Under the pieces are notes generated by a model. The model was not told the origin of the DNA. It saw nothing but the letters and a program-made list of their open reading frames with translations, and made no database searches. Position numbers and translations under genes: made by a program. A DNA stretch of 13,430 nucleotides from positions 1 to 13,430 of the forward strand of contig JBIKWF010000116.1 of the NCBI GenBank assembly GCA_044356455.1, written 5' to 3'. Below are positions 1-13,430 of this stretch, piece after piece (within the stretch, counting starts at the first letter, position 1; every line of letters begins with the position of its first letter). This stretch comes from Bdellovibrionota bacterium. GTDB lineage: Bacteria; Bdellovibrionota_C; UBA2361; JBGSMV01.

Positions 1-820
1 TACGGTGGATTCCTGGAGTCAGTCGGCAACTCAAAGTTTCGTAGACGAACTCCTGCGCCTGGGCCAAGCACCTGCCTCAGTGGCACGTCGTCTTGCTACC
101 CTTAAGCATATGGGTCGTACCTTGGCGGAAAAAGTGCCTGGGTTTGTGAACCCCGCACGAGAGGTGAAGCCTCCCAAGTTCGAAGTGAGCAAGCCAAAGG
201 CACTTAAAGAAAGTGAGGTGCTTCAGGTAAAGCAGCGCGCCTCAGACCGCGTAGGTGAGAAGCGCTCCTATACGCGAGTAAGAAACGAAACAATTCTTCA
301 CCTGCTCCTTGATACGGGACTTCGCGCAGAGGAGCTGCGGCTTCTCAGGCGTGAGCAGCTAGACGAAGAAATTGAGTGGCTCTCCTCAGTCAGAACGAAG
401 GGACGCCGCTACAGGAATGTGTATGTAACGTCAGCAATGAGACCAAGGCTCAAGGCTTATCTCGAGGCGCGAGCTACCGAGCTGCGGCGTTTCTTCCCCA
501 AGCTCTCCTCTCTCACCGACAAGGCACTTCCACTCTTTATCAGTAGCTATAGGGCGAATCCGGCGAAGCCCGAGAGCTTCTTCATGGGAGCTAAGACGTT
601 GTGGCGAGCGGTACACGAATGCTCTGCGGAGTTGGATCTTCATCCGCACCTTTTGCGGCATTCGTTTGCCCTAGAATTGCTTGAGCACTCTGGGGATATT
701 CGGCTTGTCTCTCAGGCCTTGGGTCATGGTGATACCAAAGTGACGATGCGCTACACCGAACGACGAGGTGAAGAAGTTGCGCGGGCTTTGGAAAAGATGC
801 GAGTTAAGAAGGGGAAATAG
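1..820 (+). CDS. Tyrosine recombinase/integrase, XerC/XerD-like; probably 5'-truncated by the window edge
   Basis: Catalytic residues are visible: LLLDTGLRAEEL (Arg), RTKG (Lys), HPHLLRHSFA (HxxR), LGH and TMRYT (Tyr). The N-terminal 'PASVARRLATLK' resembles the SAM-like domain. The frame is open from position 2; stop TAG at 818-820. Confidence 0.92.
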   Translation, partial: TVDSWSQSATQSFVDELLRLGQAPASVARRLATLKHMGRTLAEKVPGFVNPAREVKPPKFEVSKPKALKESEVLQVKQRASDRVGEKRSYTRVRNETILHLLLDTGLRAEELRLLRREQLDEEIEWLSSVRTKGRRYRNVYVTSAMRPRLKAYLEARATELRRFFPKLSSLTDKALPLFISSYRANPAKPESFFMGAKTLWRAVHECSAELDLHPHLLRHSFALELLEHSGDIRLVSQALGHGDTKVTMRYTERRGEEVARALEKMRVKKGK

Positions 821-4943: not shown

Positions 4944-5897
4944 TCACGAGGTGCTCTTTAGCGAGCTACTAAGCACGTTTAGGGCTCCAAACAAGCTCCG
5001 CTCAAATTCTGCTCGTGAAATGTGGGTTATCACCCTGATGTTTTCTGGCCCTTGCGCTTTGAGGCGAGAGTCGATTATGAGCATTCCCCGTGTCTGACGG
5101 CTTTCTGTCTCGATAGCTCCGCGCATGGGCTTCCCTTGTGTTCTCACTGGTCGCAATGCACAGAAGACCGCAAGTGGGTCATACATAATGGCGCCCCGAA
5201 TTCCCTCCTCCTTCCAATTTCCCTGCATATAGGGTCCTAGCAAATCGAGAATTGCTCTTCTCAGCTTGCCATTCTTGACTCGACCAAAGTCTTTCCGCCT
5301 GAGTGATATTGGATAACACGCATCGAGCGTCACGAGTCTAATTGGCACACCTGCAGTAAGCACCACCGCAGCTGCTTCGGGATCCACATAGAAATTGAAC
5401 TCCGAGAGCGGCCCCTTGTTTCCGGGCGCATGTACGGTGCCGCCAAGTATAACGAGCTCCTTAAACATTCTGAACCCTGAGGGGTCGAGCTTATAGGCCG
5501 CCGCCAAATTGGTAAGGGGAGCGAGAGCAATCAAAGTCACTTCTCCCGGAAGGGAGCGGGCAACTTGCGTGAGTTCCCTTGGGGCTTGCGCCCCTGCCCA
5601 TTTGCCTGCCGGCAGTCTTAGACTCCCAAGCCCGGACTCTCCATGCACTACTGACAGTTCAAGCCTGCGCCGAAGGGGCTTTGCACAGCCGGAAAAAAGA
5701 GGCACATCCGCTTGGCCAAGAAATGAAAGTACCGCGCTCGCATTTCTAGTGGTCGTGCTTACCGAGGCATTTCCTGCGCAGGTTGTGACCGCGACCACGT
5801 CAAGTTCTTTCGAGCCAAAGGCGTACATCAGAGCAAGGGCATCATCACAGCCCGGGTCACAGTCAATCACGACTTTCAAGGCTTTAGTGGTGCTCAT
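4944..5897 (-). CDS. Nucleoside hydrolase (inosine-uridine-preferring / Rih family)
   Basis: VVIDCDPGCDDALAL (DxDxxxDD Ca-binding motif), AGN, VHGESGLG, LAPLTNLA, SEFNFYVDPEAA, YDP and TRGM are present. GGGAGG SD at 5909-5904. ATGA overlap with the upstream stop. Confidence 0.95.
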   Translation of the reverse strand: MSTTKALKVVIDCDPGCDDALALMYAFGSKELDVVAVTTCAGNASVSTTTRNASAVLSFLGQADVPLFSGCAKPLRRRLELSVVHGESGLGSLRLPAGKWAGAQAPRELTQVARSLPGEVTLIALAPLTNLAAAYKLDPSGFRMFKELVILGGTVHAPGNKGPLSEFNFYVDPEAAAVVLTAGVPIRLVTLDACYPISLRRKDFGRVKNGKLRRAILDLLGPYMQGNWKEEGIRGAIMYDPLAVFCALRPVRTQGKPMRGAIETESRQTRGMLIIDSRLKAQGPENIRVITHISRAEFERSLFGALNVLSSSLKSTS

Positions 5898-7849
5898 AGC
5901 AGGCCTCCCATACTCCCAACTGTTGCTTGTTCTTCAATTACCACCCTGAGCGCGCTCAGCGTTCCAAGGAGGTACGGGAGTCGTGTGCGCAAAACGCCAG
6001 GTGTCTCGCTGAGCGGCACCCTAGAATTCGCAACTAAAATTGTTCTTTGCCGAGGTCCGGGAGAGACCAAGTCAGCGCGAGAATCGCCAATCATAGTGAT
6101 GTCGACGCCAACTCCCGCGAAGGCGTTGAGCACGGTTCCCTTCGCTTCATCCAGGGCAGCAATCGGGTGAATAGAAGCGTATCCGTAGAGTCCCGCATCC
6201 GGATTGATCTCGAGGGCACATCGAAGTCCGGCCAGATCGCGCAGTTCTGTTTCAAGAACTTGAAGGCTTGCAATAAACTCGCGGTCTCCAAAGATTGCTA
6301 CTGAGGCTTCGCGTCCGGCTCCAAACGAAAACCAGCGCCCTTGCAGTGGTGGTGCCGTCCCACCGAACTCTGTGGCCCACCTCTCGGGGAGCTCGTCGCG
6401 ATTCATCTGGGACGCATACACCCGTACTCTTTCCTTGAGCGCAGAAATATTTGTCAGCGTTCTTAGCGAAACTTTGCTTCCATCCTCGGTCCACAGCACG
6501 CTTCCCATCTCAGCGAGAATAGGTCCGCGAAGTCCCAATGATAGGGCAAGTTTTTTGAGTGGTTCGCTTGGGCTATCTGAGCACAAGCCGACAGCGATGT
6601 CCGAGCGCTGGGCTTCCGCAACGAGAGTTTTGAGCTCTTTGCTGAGAAGGGGATCGAGCGCCGATTCTCCTGGTGCGAAAAGTGTCCCGTTGACGTCAAG
6701 AAGAACTACTTGAGGGGGGAGCCCCACATTCGCCACAGCAGAGACGAGATTCGCTTCCTCTGGAGAACTGACAAGTTTCTCTGAAGTCATCCTGCTGATT
6801 GCTGATTTCAGCAGATCCGCCAGGCGAGTTTGCTCAGATACTCCAAGGATACAGGCCGCGTAGCGTGCGAATCCTTGGGTGCAGTCAGCGAGAGAGAGGG
6901 TGAGCCCCTCTTGTGCCTCAAGAACCTCGGCAAACTGCAGATTTGCTTTGAGCACAGCGACTGAGAACGAGACTGCGGCACTTTCCGGAATGCTTGCTCG
7001 GCTGGCGGGGTCGGCGAAGGGAAGACAGTAAGGGAGTTGACCGAGTGTTTCACCGGGCAAAGAAACCCAGGCTCCTCCCAGGCCGACCATGAAATCTGAC
7101 AAGTCGACAAGGTCCATGCTCTGAAGAGGATTGTTATTTGGGTCGCTGAAGCGAACTACTGAATCCGGTGCAAGATCGTCCAGCATTCCAACTTGAGTGA
7201 AGGCAGCCACCCTTTTCGGAGTGATGCCTACTTGTCTTAGAAGCGACGCCGCGCGGCGAATTGTTCCGCCCGTCACAATGTGATCATCCACCAAAGAGAT
7301 TTCTTTTCGCTCCTCCACACTTGATTGTCCAAGGAGCGCTTCAAGCTGAGTAGAAATAGGGGTTCCAAAACGCGGCGTGAATCCGATTCTTCGCTGCCCC
7401 GAGAGCGTAAAAAGCCGCGCGAAGTCCCAGAGTGGAATATTAAGTTCAGAGGCAAGCTCTGGAGAAAGAGAGATGCAAGACTCCTCTTGATTGCGGCAAG
7501 GAATTCTCGCTGCCAACTCAGCCTGGTCTAAGGTGAGAAGACGAAAGCGTGACTGCCGCTCTGATTGCTGGCTCCATTCCTTAGATTCGATAAATGCGCG
7601 TTGAAGAGCGATGGCGACAGAATTTCGAAGTTCAATCAGTCCTGGACTCACGGCTGCACGCGCACGAGAACTGGGGATACCAAGCCGCTTAGCAAGTCGC
7701 TCCCCGAGTCCGTTCGCAACTCCCGGGGCCTCGTCGATAAGCGCAAAAGTGAAGGATGCTCGCCGGAGATCGATATCTCGCTCACCGGCCCAGGTTTCTC
7801 CCACTGGGATAATCTGATTCTTAGGGTAGTTTTCGCTTTTTTGTGCCAC
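5894..7849 (-). CDS. Fusion protein: N-terminal type I phosphoribosyltransferase-like domain plus C-terminal HAD-superfamily (Cof/IIB-like) hydrolase domain
   Basis: ISLVDDHIVTGGTI matches the PRPP-binding loop. HAD motifs: I VVLLDVNGTL, II LCSD, 'PILAEMG' at the C2-cap junction, III AKG, IV MIGDSRAD. GTG start with a weak SD. Confidence 0.8.
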   Translation of the reverse strand: MAQKSENYPKNQIIPVGETWAGERDIDLRRASFTFALIDEAPGVANGLGERLAKRLGIPSSRARAAVSPGLIELRNSVAIALQRAFIESKEWSQQSERQSRFRLLTLDQAELAARIPCRNQEESCISLSPELASELNIPLWDFARLFTLSGQRRIGFTPRFGTPISTQLEALLGQSSVEERKEISLVDDHIVTGGTIRRAASLLRQVGITPKRVAAFTQVGMLDDLAPDSVVRFSDPNNNPLQSMDLVDLSDFMVGLGGAWVSLPGETLGQLPYCLPFADPASRASIPESAAVSFSVAVLKANLQFAEVLEAQEGLTLSLADCTQGFARYAACILGVSEQTRLADLLKSAISRMTSEKLVSSPEEANLVSAVANVGLPPQVVLLDVNGTLFAPGESALDPLLSKELKTLVAEAQRSDIAVGLCSDSPSEPLKKLALSLGLRGPILAEMGSVLWTEDGSKVSLRTLTNISALKERVRVYASQMNRDELPERWATEFGGTAPPLQGRWFSFGAGREASVAIFGDREFIASLQVLETELRDLAGLRCALEINPDAGLYGYASIHPIAALDEAKGTVLNAFAGVGVDITMIGDSRADLVSPGPRQRTILVANSRVPLSETPGVLRTRLPYLLGTLSALRVVIEEQATVGSMGGLL

Positions 7850-7910: not shown

Positions 7911-7940
7911 AACAAAAAACCGGCTCAAGGCCGGTTGTTT
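7911..7940 (-). terminator. Intrinsic terminator (attenuator) in the 5' leader of the PRTase-HAD gene
   Basis: The minus strand reads AAACAACCGGC-CTTGA-GCCGGTTTTTTGTT: a GC stem followed by U6, about 60 nt upstream of GTG 7849 and in the same orientation as the operon. Confidence 0.85.
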
Positions 7941-8036
7941 AAGAGAGTAAATCTAGAATTTCCAAATGCCAGGAACTTCCAAATGTAGTGCCCAAAAGTA
8001 ATGCAGTGACTGCACTAAACCGACCACACTGATGCT

Positions 8037-8090
8037 TCAGTGCTTATGTGGAGTGAGTCGATGATGTTTGAAGTTCGCGGAAAACTGCAT
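8037..8090 (-). CDS. Putative attenuator leader peptide MQFSANFKHHRLTPHKH (17 aa, 4 His)
   Basis: ATG CAG TTT TCC GCG AAC TTC AAA CAT CAT CGA CTC ACT CCA CAT AAG CAC TGA. It overlaps a predicted protector hairpin and precedes the antiterminator and terminator. Confidence 0.7.
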   Translation of the reverse strand: MQFSANFKHHRLTPHKH

Positions 8091-8125: not shown

Positions 8126-8154
8126 CAAAAAAGATCAGGTATCAGAATGTTTTC

Positions 8155-8355
8155 ACCACAAAGGACGCAAGGGACACAAAGGTACACATTGAAATTGCTA
8201 GGAGTCTGTCCCCTAGAAAAATCTCACCACTACAGGCTGTGGTGGCAACGGGGCAGGCTACCTCCGGATCGTGTCCGAAATGCAGATTAATGTTTCTAAG
8301 GGACAAATCTGAGTTTGAATTGAGCTTTCTTTGCGTCCCTTGTGTCCTTTGTGGT
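8155..8355. repeat. Long-range inverted repeat of 9-nt-period units enclosing a nested hairpin
   Basis: ACCACAAAGGACGCAAGGGACACAAAG (8155-8181) and CTTTGCGTCCCTTGTGTCCTTTGTGGT (8329-8355) match at 25/27. Inner stems: AGTCTGTCCC/GGGGCAGGCT (8203-8259) and CACCAC/GTGGTG (8225-8244). Confidence 0.8.
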
Positions 8356-9046: not shown

Positions 9047-9176
9047 GGAAACTCTGAAAGACATCGCTAGCTCATTTTTCCCCCTCAGTGAACTCTGTGC
9101 CCTCTGTGGTTGATTTAAATTGTTGAAGAACCACAGAGGACACAGAGTTCACTGAGCGGACTTTTTCAGAGATTCC
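9047..9176. mobile_element. MITE copy B (130 bp; apparently inverted relative to copy A, diverged)
   Basis: CTAG-GGAAACTCTGAAAGAC ... CTTTTTCAGAGATTCC-CTAA. The internal inverted repeat 9084-9111 / 9129-9156 matches at 27/28. Confidence 0.8.
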
Positions 9177-10871: not shown

Positions 10872-11000
10872 GGAACCTGTGAAAAACTGACCTCTGTGTA
10901 GCTCTGCGCCCTCTGTGGTGAAATTATCATGAAGAAATTGACCACGGAGGACACGGAGTTACACAGAGGTGTACTAAGAATGGAGGCGTTTCAGAGGTCC
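10872..11000. mobile_element. MITE copy D (129 bp, close homologue of copy A)
   Basis: CCAG-GGAACCTGTGAAAAAC...GCGTTTCAGAGGTCC-CTAG is collinear with 2721-2850 along its whole length, including the internal hairpin. Confidence 0.85.
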
Positions 11001-11876
11001 CTAGTATTGAATGTACACCTGGTTTTGGGTCTCTTCCAGAACCCAGCTTAGCATCTCTTCCGTGGCGATAAGCGTATGGGAGTTATACGTAGGCGGAGCG
11101 CATATCCCGTTCGATACCGCCGAGTTCACGCCAATTACCAGTAGCGGCCAAGCGGGGTCGAGTGACATGAGAGAGGGGCCACCAGAATCACCATGGCATA
11201 CGCCACTTTCAGAGTAGTCGAAGAAGGCTGATACATAAAGATTCAAATCTACTGAGATGCCATCGACACTTGATTGGCCCACGCGCAGCTGGCCATCGGT
11301 TGCCTGAGTATTAGGATCAAAGCGGCCATATCCCGTAATAAGGGTCGGGGTGCCTACCCCAGGAGTGTAGGAGGAAAGTACTCCAAGAGCGCCATAGTAA
11401 GGTCTCTCAAAAGTAATAATCGCAGCATCATACGGGAAATGAGGAATCACCCCGTTCTCGTCAACATACTGAAAGTAGCCATGCACGTAGTTGGGGTGCG
11501 GCGCGACAGCGGTAGCACGGTTGAAGCTGCCATCCTCCATAAGAAGAAACAGTTCCTCGGGTGCGGCGAGTCTTGGACTTTCTCCTACGTGGACGCAGTG
11601 CCCTGCGGTCAGATACTGATAGGGATTAATCATTGTTCCGCTGCATGTAGAAACTAGGTTAGTGAAGGAGTCAACTGCATACATCTGCTTCACATACGGA
11701 AGCTGCGCCGGGTCGATTACCACCCCATTAATGATGCGCTCTTGAGCGGCAGGTGCTGAGCCCTCAGATCCGCTTCCACTGCAGCCTGTGAGAGTTGCTG
11801 TGAGAAGAACCGCGGCTGAGCAAAAAGAGATTGTCTTACGAAGTAATGAATCATTCAGGGAAACTGAGAAACGCAT
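11001..11876 (-). CDS. S1 (chymotrypsin/trypsin-fold) serine protease, predicted lipoprotein
   Basis: Lipobox LTGC, R-IINGV mature-type N-terminus, CSGTMI..LTAGHC (His), YDAAII (Asp) and CHGDSGGP (Ser). GAGGTG upstream favours ATG 11876 over ATG 11894. Confidence 0.93.
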   Translation of the reverse strand: MRFSVSLNDSLLRKTISFCSAAVLLTATLTGCSGSGSEGSAPAAQERIINGVVIDPAQLPYVKQMYAVDSFTNLVSTCSGTMINPYQYLTAGHCVHVGESPRLAAPEELFLLMEDGSFNRATAVAPHPNYVHGYFQYVDENGVIPHFPYDAAIITFERPYYGALGVLSSYTPGVGTPTLITGYGRFDPNTQATDGQLRVGQSSVDGISVDLNLYVSAFFDYSESGVCHGDSGGPSLMSLDPAWPLLVIGVNSAVSNGICAPPTYNSHTLIATEEMLSWVLEETQNQVYIQY

Positions 11877-12000
11877 AGAGCACCTCACCACCATAACCTT
11901 AGTGCCCTTTCGTTGGGGCGTTCTTAGGTTGTTATCGTGCTCTTTAGAGAATAGTTGCTTAGATCCCTTTCTCCCTGGGATTTCAGGTTATTAGCCTAGA

Positions 12001-12022
12001 TCTTTCAGAGTAGGTTCCCTAA
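12001..12022. repeat. Solo MITE terminal repeat (copy E)
   Basis: The reverse complement reads TTAG-GGAACCT-ACT-CTGAAAGA, i.e. the TIR with a 3-nt insertion. It overlaps the ATPase stop codon. Confidence 0.55.
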
Positions 12023-13430
12023 GGAATCCCCAGTTCCTTAAATGCACTTTCAAGGTCGCCCTTTTCGACCACATAATCGCGGCTTCCTCTGGCGGACTCT
12101 CGCTTGAAGGCATTGAGCCCGGCTTGATTGCAAATGGTGCGAATATCGGCAGCGGCCTTGCCGTTAGTACGCCGGGCAAGTTGAAGCACGTCTGCAGGTT
12201 CGCGAAGCTTAAGCTTGGCAAGATAGAGTGAAAACAGTTTCTGGCGCGCTTCAAGTGAAGGCAGCGGAATTTCTATAACTTTATTCAGGCGACCGCCGCG
12301 CTTGAGCGCTGGGTCAACAAGATCGGCCCTATTCGTAGCTGCAATAATGTAAATACCTTCTCGTGTGATTACGCCGTCGATAAGCTGCAGAAGGTGATTG
12401 AGCAAATTGTCGGCATGTTGCGCATTGCCTTCTGAGCGATTTTTCGCGATTGAATCAACCTCGTCAATAAAGATAACTGCGGGGGCGTGTTTGGCCGCAG
12501 CCTTGAACAGCCTCGTTAGATTTTTTTCAGATTCGCCCACCCATTTTGAGATCACCTCGTCCATCTTAAGTACGAAGAAGGAGAGTTCGGCGGTAGAGGC
12601 AATTATTTTTGCAATTGTCGTTTTGCCGGTTCCCGGCGGCCCGTTAAGAAGAATCCCCTTAGGGACATCTATCCCGTAGTTTTTTGCAGTTGCGGGGTCC
12701 TTAAGTAAATCGACCACTGATTGAAGCTCTTGGCGCAGGGCAGGGTCGATGATGACATCATCCCACGTCACCCGCTCTATGCCCTTATTGAGTGGAACCG
12801 GCGAAACGGCGGCGTCGGGTTTGTCCTCAAGGAGGTCTTGTTCGGTCACGGCATAGTCGCTTAGAGCTGCTTCAATATCCTCTGAGGAGATAAGAAAATC
12901 CCGCTGATCTTTGCCCTTAGACGACTCGCGCTTATAGGCATGGAGTCCTGCTTGATTGCAGATTTCTTTGATATCAGCAGCAGAGTTCCCCGCCGTCGCA
13001 GCGGATAGCGCTTCCAAGTCCACGTCGCTTTCAAGGTGCAGGTGCGCAAGATACAATTCGAAAAGTCTCCTACGGCTTGCGTCATCAGGACGGGGAATTT
13101 CGATGACTCGGTTAAGCCTACCTGCTCTTTTCAGCGCATCATCAACTAAATCAGGACGATTTGTGGCAGCGATTATGTAGAGGCCTTCGGTCTTTACCAC
13201 CCCGTCCATCAGCTGCAAGAGATGGTTGAGAAGTCCATCCCCAGATTCAGATTGGCTATCGGAACGCTTTTTCCCGATAGCGTCGATTTCGTCGATAAAG
13301 ATTACCGCAGGCGCCTGCTTCTGGGCTGTTTCGAAAAGACGAGTTAAATTCTTCTCTGAGTCGCCGACCCACTTTGAGACAATTTCATCTGGCCTGAAGG
13401 CAAAAAAGTTAAGCCCCGCGTCACTTGCCA
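12019..13430 (-). CDS. Tandem-domain AAA+ ATPase (classic clade, CDC48/p97-like architecture); 5'-truncated by the window edge
   Basis: The frame stays open to the window end (ASDAGLNFFAFRPDEIVSKWVGDSEKNL...IFIDEID...). The C-terminal module has GPPGTGKT, KWVG, IFIDEVD and AATNR..LVDPALKRGGRL. The preceding module has Walker B and SRH motifs. Confidence 0.95.
   Translation of the reverse strand, partial: ASDAGLNFFAFRPDEIVSKWVGDSEKNLTRLFETAQKQAPAVIFIDEIDAIGKKRSDSQSESGDGLLNHLLQLMDGVVKTEGLYIIAATNRPDLVDDALKRAGRLNRVIEIPRPDDASRRRLFELYLAHLHLESDVDLEALSAATAGNSAADIKEICNQAGLHAYKRESSKGKDQRDFLISSEDIEAALSDYAVTEQDLLEDKPDAAVSPVPLNKGIERVTWDDVIIDPALRQELQSVVDLLKDPATAKNYGIDVPKGILLNGPPGTGKTTIAKIIASTAELSFFVLKMDEVISKWVGESEKNLTRLFKAAAKHAPAVIFIDEVDSIAKNRSEGNAQHADNLLNHLLQLIDGVITREGIYIIAATNRADLVDPALKRGGRLNKVIEIPLPSLEARQKLFSLYLAKLKLREPADVLQLARRTNGKAAADIRTICNQAGLNAFKRESARGSRDYVVEKGDLESAFKELGIP

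Follow-up and report, generated by a model that had tools for sequence, protein, structure and literature searches.

The stretch of DNA considered here (the window, 13,430 nucleotides) is contig C96, GenBank JBIKWF010000116.1, of a 4.7 Mb, 93% complete genome of a lake bacterium of the Bdellovibrionota, labelled G000 below. On its reverse strand, a gene that fuses an enlarged type I phosphoribosyltransferase (PRT) fold to a haloacid dehalogenase (HAD) domain overlaps a nucleoside hydrolase gene. The pair lies behind a His-codon leader and a terminator that together probably form a His attenuator, in an assembly where the histidine biosynthesis pathway was not found. We tentatively propose that this module is a histidine-starvation-induced route leading from a ribotide via a riboside to histidine and ribose, with the substrate deduced from the regulatory logic and not from the active site. 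The route is ranked first because His-controlled genes normally raise the histidine supply, according to the excerpt of PMC9413887 available to us. As G000 lacks the his pathway, salvage would be the remaining way to raise that supply; with no route of synthesis, the only way for a phosphatase and an N-ribohydrolase to do so would be the release of histidine from some ribosylated form.

The pair of fusion and hydrolase is real, conserved and uncharacterised. The coupling described in an earlier note on this DNA, an ATGA overlap and a GGGAGG Shine-Dalgarno sequence, is present as described (Table 1), and the GTG start of the fusion gene is backed by the N-termini of its nearest homologues, P0002 and P0003. 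In contigs from two other lake runs, the leader is joined to the fusion gene and the fusion gene to the hydrolase gene, with no indel or frameshift listed inside either gene. A word search returned eight homologues of the fusion, while a profile search returned 1325 clusters matching either domain at E<=1e-10; among the best 150 of these, about 38 span both domains, the remainder being stand-alone PRT or HAD proteins or fragments. Across the 124 genomes of the class, which are all genomes of the phylum in the set, the full fusion occurs in eight and a partial one in two (cut at the contig end in G085, a truncated remnant in G121). The hydrolase adjoins the fusion in seven of the eight full-length carriers and lies about 10 kb off in the other, G112, which bears out the expectation that the pairing is conserved elsewhere; its family is present in all 10 carriers, compared with 23 of the 124 genomes overall. 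Four metagenome loci were also included; L014 and L016, like L009, code for a protein identical or almost identical to that of G113, which was counted once; at L015, which like L017 appears to derive from the candidate phyla radiation (CPR), the hydrolase is coupled to the fusion. The folds of the domains are genuine and other genomes show the pairing again, so that the module is not a chance pattern. All of its parts belong, as divergent members, to known superfamilies, and no part passes a test for a named enzyme. The literature searches found no paper on a PRT/HAD fusion or a His-attenuated hydrolase operon, in keeping with the earlier suggestion that the module has no characterised match; the supplementary HisR regulon lists of PMC9413887, outside that coverage, could bear on its novelty.

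The assignment of the N-terminal half depends on structure. Our conclusions on it rest on a model of residues 24-365 built from a 69-row alignment (pLDDT 92.9). Compared with 48,161 solved chains (VIA), the top 37 matches of this model are all PRT-fold proteins, the best being 1vdm (Z 9.3, root-mean-square deviation 4.0, 139 residues aligned, model positions 10-269). Foldseek matched the same families, solely at E >1e-3. Profile matches of the fusion to APRT and OPRT reach E ~4e-5, the family libraries give weak PRT and HAD-IIB hints that are every one below cut-off, the NCBIfam and Pfam scores for named PRTs (APRT, OPRT, HPRT, PRS, ComF) are far under cut-off, and the matches in the ESM Atlas (score 0.90-0.92) are only unnamed or PRT-labelled clusters. 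The type I PRT fold proposed earlier for the N terminus is thus borne out by the model and its structural matches. The stretch of about 130 residues that had been left unassigned between the domains falls within the range aligned to 1vdm; it is therefore the C-terminal part of one enlarged PRT domain and no separate domain. By analogy with purine PRT anatomy, this part may form the base-binding region.

With type I PRTs such as the archaeal purine PRT 1vdm, HGXPRT 4z1o, APRT and OPRT, the domain shares the core fold and the loop that binds phosphoribosyl pyrophosphate (PRPP). It differs from them in size (~340 residues against ~150-200), in identity (~11%) and in the third acidic position that follows the two Asp residues of the loop. 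The loop itself, two acidic residues followed by T/S-G-x-T, is found where it had been placed before. Position 190 within it is acidic in 61 of the 69 family rows and His in the window, which also lacks D129 (kept in 66 rows), S144 (67), R251 (64) and R271 (67). Because several family-conserved residues differ, the PRT activity of the window's copy is uncertain, and the domain may not be an active transferase. A search with P0049 of phage records and viral contigs gave no PRT relative.

The C-terminal half belongs more clearly to its superfamily. Its best fold match is 1wr8 (E 2e-10, TM 0.74 to the target), with a Rossmannoid core and a C2 cap, and all four HAD motif regions reported in the earlier note are present and conserved in homologues: D385-V-N387-G-T389, C423-S-D-S426, K570 and G588-D-S-x-x-D593. 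Motif I has to be corrected to DxN, in place of the usual DxD; its second position is Asn in 25 of 31 HAD rows, Asp in four and a gap in two. In HAD-IIB phosphatases, this second Asp is the general acid/base. The nucleophile Asp, the Lys and motif IV are kept, and D425, K570, G588 and D593 are invariant. The domain thus has its fold and motifs II-IV in common with subfamily IIB phosphatases (PH1421 1wr8, TA0175 1kyt, Cof, YedP), but departs from them in the DxN motif, the invariant Asp425 of CSDSP, the cap residue His561 and the fusion to a PRT domain. No HAD relative was found in the plasmids searched.

The hydrolase passes the PF01156 cut-off by a wide margin (263.8 bits against 34.2), scores below the NCBIfam cut-offs for RihA/B/C and UriH, and is closest to RihA/RihC. 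It is the sole member of its family in G000. In common with the group I enzymes RihA and RihC, it has an intact Ca-binding DxDxGxDD, the first His, Glu166/Asn168 and the last Asp, but Tyr239 stands in place of the proton-donor His ahead of that last Ca-binding Asp. According to the part of PMC8910321 at hand, the residue before the last Asp is His in group I, Trp in group II and Cys in group III, and other group I hydrolases without this His exist. The fusions of G000, G023 and G086 fall into one clade (SH-aLRT 99 in a quick tree). In its genome members, the PRPP loop contains DDH, and the leaving-group site of their full-length partner hydrolases is occupied by Tyr.

Several further arrangements were seen around the fusion or its domains. 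Ribokinase adjoins the module in G001, G035 and G112, and its orthologue in G000 is on another contig; in G014, a 797-aa protein with a divergent PRT domain (L096 5364-7757, reverse strand) is encoded upstream of a hydrolase and a ribokinase. In G031 and G112, the opposite strand upstream of the fusion carries genes of the IMPase family and for a 2H phosphoesterase (L038 139-1616, L042 2683-5671). In G086, a second, monofunctional hisB (IGPD) and a gene resembling iron-ADH/glycerol-1-phosphate dehydrogenase stand directly upstream (L040 207-1979), and the his operon of this genome also holds a bifunctional HisB. An APH-family kinase is fused to the PRT and/or HAD domain in P0016, P0017, P0024, P0026, P0041 and P0063, with the order PRT-HAD-APH in four proteins.

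What sets the window's locus apart is its leader. The earlier note had alluded to a His leader; it is present, together with a terminator, and the two are probably a His attenuator, judging by their sequence. Across 1278 upstream regions of G000 with at least 250 free bases, a short open reading frame with at least three His codons occurs in 23, one with at least four in two, and a terminator hairpin in 14; at least four His codons and a terminator come together at the fusion locus only. When folding of the nascent RNA is predicted, the strand 8025-8017 occupies the 5' arm of the terminator (P 0.96), and the probability of this pairing drops, to 0.73, in a single case, when a ribosome with a footprint of 16 nt has reached the stop codon. 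Under equilibrium conditions, the terminator is always the favoured structure, the antiterminator being predicted in nascent-RNA folding only. A strain variant of the leader (one contig, depth 3) has three changes, none of which hits a His codon. There is no promoter consensus directly ahead of the leader, and Rfam gave no His leader or riboswitch in the window and only a tRNA in nine homologous loci. The window has a His-rich leader and an intrinsic terminator in common with the his-operon attenuators of enterobacteria and the B. cereus group, and may share their alternative helix, but its His codons are not in a tandem run of 3-5 and its genes serve neither his biosynthesis nor transport, the functions that His attenuators and HisR normally govern (PMC9413887, in excerpt).

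A second histidine link comes from G023, a genome of another family (~31% protein identity), whose fusion operon is preceded by MTNIVLNHFRSFHHRRA, a stop codon, GCG and a U/C tract. This fits the type of leader found upstream of hisG in the class, a His-rich short reading frame that mostly ends in HH-x-A/G-stop, with GCGC and a U/C tract poor in G behind it in most cases (8 of 12 hisG loci: L055, L056, L058-L061, L064 and L065), and which possibly acts by attenuation at the level of Rho or translation. The pattern is absent from all 1278 upstream regions of G000. At the CPR-like loci, short reading frames not enriched in His, followed by terminator-like hairpins, lie upstream of the fusion (L015 ~240-325, L017 ~1380-1518), with no Rfam match. 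Two other accounts of the leader were rejected. Queuosine sensing via His/Asn codons was dropped: codons for Asp and Tyr are missing from the leader, that of G023 looks like the class his type, and queA and tgt are present. G000 carries queA and two tgt genes, the second of which (G000:C43 248-2326, forward strand) is fused to a C-terminal domain of about 300 residues that resembles an MnmD-type methyltransferase. Capture of the leader by deletion within a his operon has no template, because the his operons of four relatives (G002, G004, G086, G122; three followed to the operon end) contain no fusion/hydrolase module.

The attenuator would also fit detoxification. Here, a histidine analogue or a nucleoside-type HisRS inhibitor would lower His-tRNA charging and open the attenuator, and would then be ribosylated or cleaved by the module. 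The portion of PMC9413887 consulted has the attenuator responding to uncharged tRNA and not to free histidine, the distribution of the fusion is patchy (eight full copies in 124 genomes), and some homologues have gained an APH-family kinase. No such inhibitor was identified, however, and no resistance or biosynthetic context was seen; we give this explanation little credence.

The case for salvage depends on the missing pathway. By Pfam, G000 has no hisG, hisA/F, hisB-IGPD or hisD, each of which was found in 14 of 14 control genomes, and a comparison with eight His proteins of G002 yielded one partial HAD match only. The gap that the earlier note had thought worth checking is thus present in the assembly, which does contain hisS. 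G023 and the same-genus G001 also lack hisG and hisD. This bears directly on substrates suggested in that note, namely histidinol phosphate and the AICAR/ZMP that the His pathway yields, in favour of which the His leader and the IGPD gene upstream in G086 could be cited. With hisD, hisG, hisA/F and IGPD missing, histidinol could not be converted to histidine and the pathway would make no AICAR; the prototrophs of the class already possess a HAD-IGPD HisB. HisB-N belongs to HAD subfamily IIIA, whereas the window's domain is IIB-like, and the family libraries give no match of the fusion to histidinol-phosphate phosphatases (HisB-N/HisN/HisJ). Histidinol phosphate is an unlikely substrate, and we hold this explanation, AICAR/ZMP included, to be very improbable. 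The further proposal, that all three activities form a salvage cycle on one compound, finds no support either: such a cycle would only burn PRPP. Of the ideas in that note, an imidazole-type ribotide stays a candidate substrate.

We would therefore arrange the activities differently in the proposed route to histidine. Ribosomes stalled on the leader's His codons would free the strand 8025-8017 to pair with the terminator arm, allowing transcription to read through. The HAD domain would strip the 5'-phosphate from the nucleotide of an N-ribosylated histidine or a close imidazole, the Ca-dependent hydrolase, in which Tyr239 stands for the usual His, would split the N-riboside into base and ribose, and ribokinase would convert the ribose to ribose 5-phosphate. 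The PRT-fold domain may bind the same ribotide or PRPP, either for pyrophosphorolysis or as a sensor; the latter role is considered because the window's copy lacks several family-conserved residues. Ribosylhistidine can form by base exchange catalysed by NAD glycohydrolase. The term occurs as a metabolite name in the literature, and histidine is an ADP-ribose acceptor according to an extract of PMC10952255.

A number of observations weigh against this route. No bacterial source of ribosyl-histidine turned up in the literature searches. With a completeness of 93%, the assembly could simply have missed the his genes; 3 of 10 carriers and 57 of the 124 class genomes have hisG, so that His auxotrophy is not clearly enriched in carriers, and G000 also has a hut degradation cluster. 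To judge from the motif, DxN could lower phosphatase activity. As for the control region, the antiterminator duplex is marginal, being equalled in 28 of 500 shuffles, the leader has no tandem run of 3-5 His, and its DNA, the repeat element aside, resembles no leader among 40 relatives. A leader with at least three His codons is absent at 8 of 10 fusion loci with upstream DNA, including the same-genus G001 and both CPR-like loci. The G023 leader is the sole match of a his-leader profile run with nhmmer on 155 kb of loci, and a weak one (E 1.1). Finally, the choice of His among 20 amino acids is post hoc.

A rival explanation is ordinary nucleotide catabolism. In it, a nucleoside monophosphate would be converted to a nucleoside, then to base and ribose, and on to ribose 5-phosphate or PRPP, and the His leader would either report starvation in general in an auxotroph or be a chance acquisition in two lineages. 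The adjacent ribokinase in G001, G035, G112 and G014, the IMPase-family and 2H phosphoesterase genes in G031 and G112, the hydrolase's kinship to RihA/RihC and its being the only one in G000, and the eight loci without a His leader are all consistent with this. It leaves unexplained the dedicated enlarged PRT family and the clade with Tyr239 and DDH, the four relatives' his operons offer no template for a capture, and His links recur in three branches. Taken together, we consider it rather doubtful and rank it second to histidine release.

A point of a different kind against histidine release is that operons with nadE and a 2OG-Fe oxygenase gene encode a homologous PRT domain joined to an NMNAT-like nucleotidyltransferase; they occur in relatives and on plasmids of Streptomyces, Paenibacillus and Variovorax (loci L088, L089, L090, L091 and L092-L094). 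The partners differ from those in the window, the operons are themselves uncharacterised, and they are not NARP3 as far as PMC13464706 describes it in the extract at hand. Such an operon is fused into a single protein of 1143 aa in G019 and of 1429 aa in P0153, and an ATP-grasp-like gene precedes it in three relatives; in G018, the window's type of HAD domain is fused to a Nudix hydrolase with no PRT domain (L043 4138-5829, reverse strand). These operons and the Nudix fusion suggest pyridine-nucleotide salvage, in which NMN or NaMN (nicotinamide or nicotinate mononucleotide) would yield the corresponding riboside and then nicotinamide or nicotinate plus ribose, the PRT domain being an unusual type I pyridine PRT. 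PncB/NAMPT are absent in all 11 genomes searched (the 10 carriers, G000 included, and G018). In yeast, the HAD enzymes Isn1 and Sdt1 partner the hydrolase URH1. That route from NMN via nicotinamide riboside to nicotinamide likewise places a phosphatase before a group I hydrolase acting on a non-nucleobase riboside, but the window adds a PRT fusion and His control, and no sequence test links the enzymes. Hydrolysis of nicotinamide riboside by URH1 itself is described in the section of PMC8910321 consulted. Against pyridine salvage, NadC was found in five of five carriers tested and is present in G000, the loci read showed no recognisable nadE or NMNAT gene next to the fusion, and the His leaders would go unexplained. 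This reading is improbable in our view.

Table 1. Coordinates of the module and its control region in the window.
Feature	Position	Strand	Basis or remark
PRT-fold/HAD fusion gene, 651 aa, GTG start	5894..7849	-	open reading frame
Nucleoside hydrolase gene, group I inosine-uridine type, 317 aa	4944..5897	-	family match
GGGAGG Shine-Dalgarno for hydrolase, within fusion gene	5904..5909	-	6 nt ahead of hydrolase ATG
ATGA overlap of fusion and hydrolase genes	5894-5897	-	sequence
Enlarged type I PRT-fold domain, residues ~24-360, including the DLSDF...PYCLPF...RASIP segment (from ~7105)	6770..7780	-	model and structure comparison
PRPP-binding loop VDDHIVTGGT, residues 187-196	7262..7291	-	family consensus D/E-D-D; His190 in window's clade
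HAD subfamily IIB (Cof/phosphoglycolate-phosphatase-like) domain, residues ~376-640, motif I DxN	5930..6724	-	fold match and motifs
His-codon leader peptide MQFSANFKHHRLTPHKH	8037..8090	-	4 His in 17 codons
Predicted antiterminator strand, pairing with 5' arm of terminator in nascent RNA	8017..8025	-	RNA folding
Intrinsic terminator-like hairpin and U run, ~65 nt ahead of fusion start	7914..7936	-	hairpin 7936-7918

Elsewhere, the window encodes a Xer-type tyrosine recombinase (5-820, forward strand) and, on the reverse strand, a membrane sulfatase/LTA-synthase-like protein (832-2565), a trypsin-like lipoprotein (11001-11894) and, near the contig end, a two-domain AAA ATPase (12019-13218). REP-like palindromic repeats lie at 2743-2815, 8138-8200, 9085-9155 and 10894-10966, the second of which has at least 16 close copies elsewhere in G000.

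Finally, we would like to place the module in the context of the wider family. Speculatively, and with considerable doubt, His auxotrophs may have an unrecognised salvage of histidine from N-(5-phosphoribosyl)-histidine or ribosyl-histidine, in which a new family of type I PRTs would act together with a DxN-bearing HAD phosphatase and a hydrolase of the Tyr type; this pathway would have been put under His-sensing switches several times independently. A probable His attenuator ahead of nucleoside-processing enzymes, in a genome lacking the his pathway, hints that histidine supply and ribosylated compounds are connected, a link that was not found in the literature. For a large PRT/HAD family that is uncharacterised, the proposal supplies a definite hypothesis on the substrate; the other branch of this family is found in nadE operons, which are just as unexplained. 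Should the substrate prove ordinary, the reuse of a His leader as a starvation gauge would remain.

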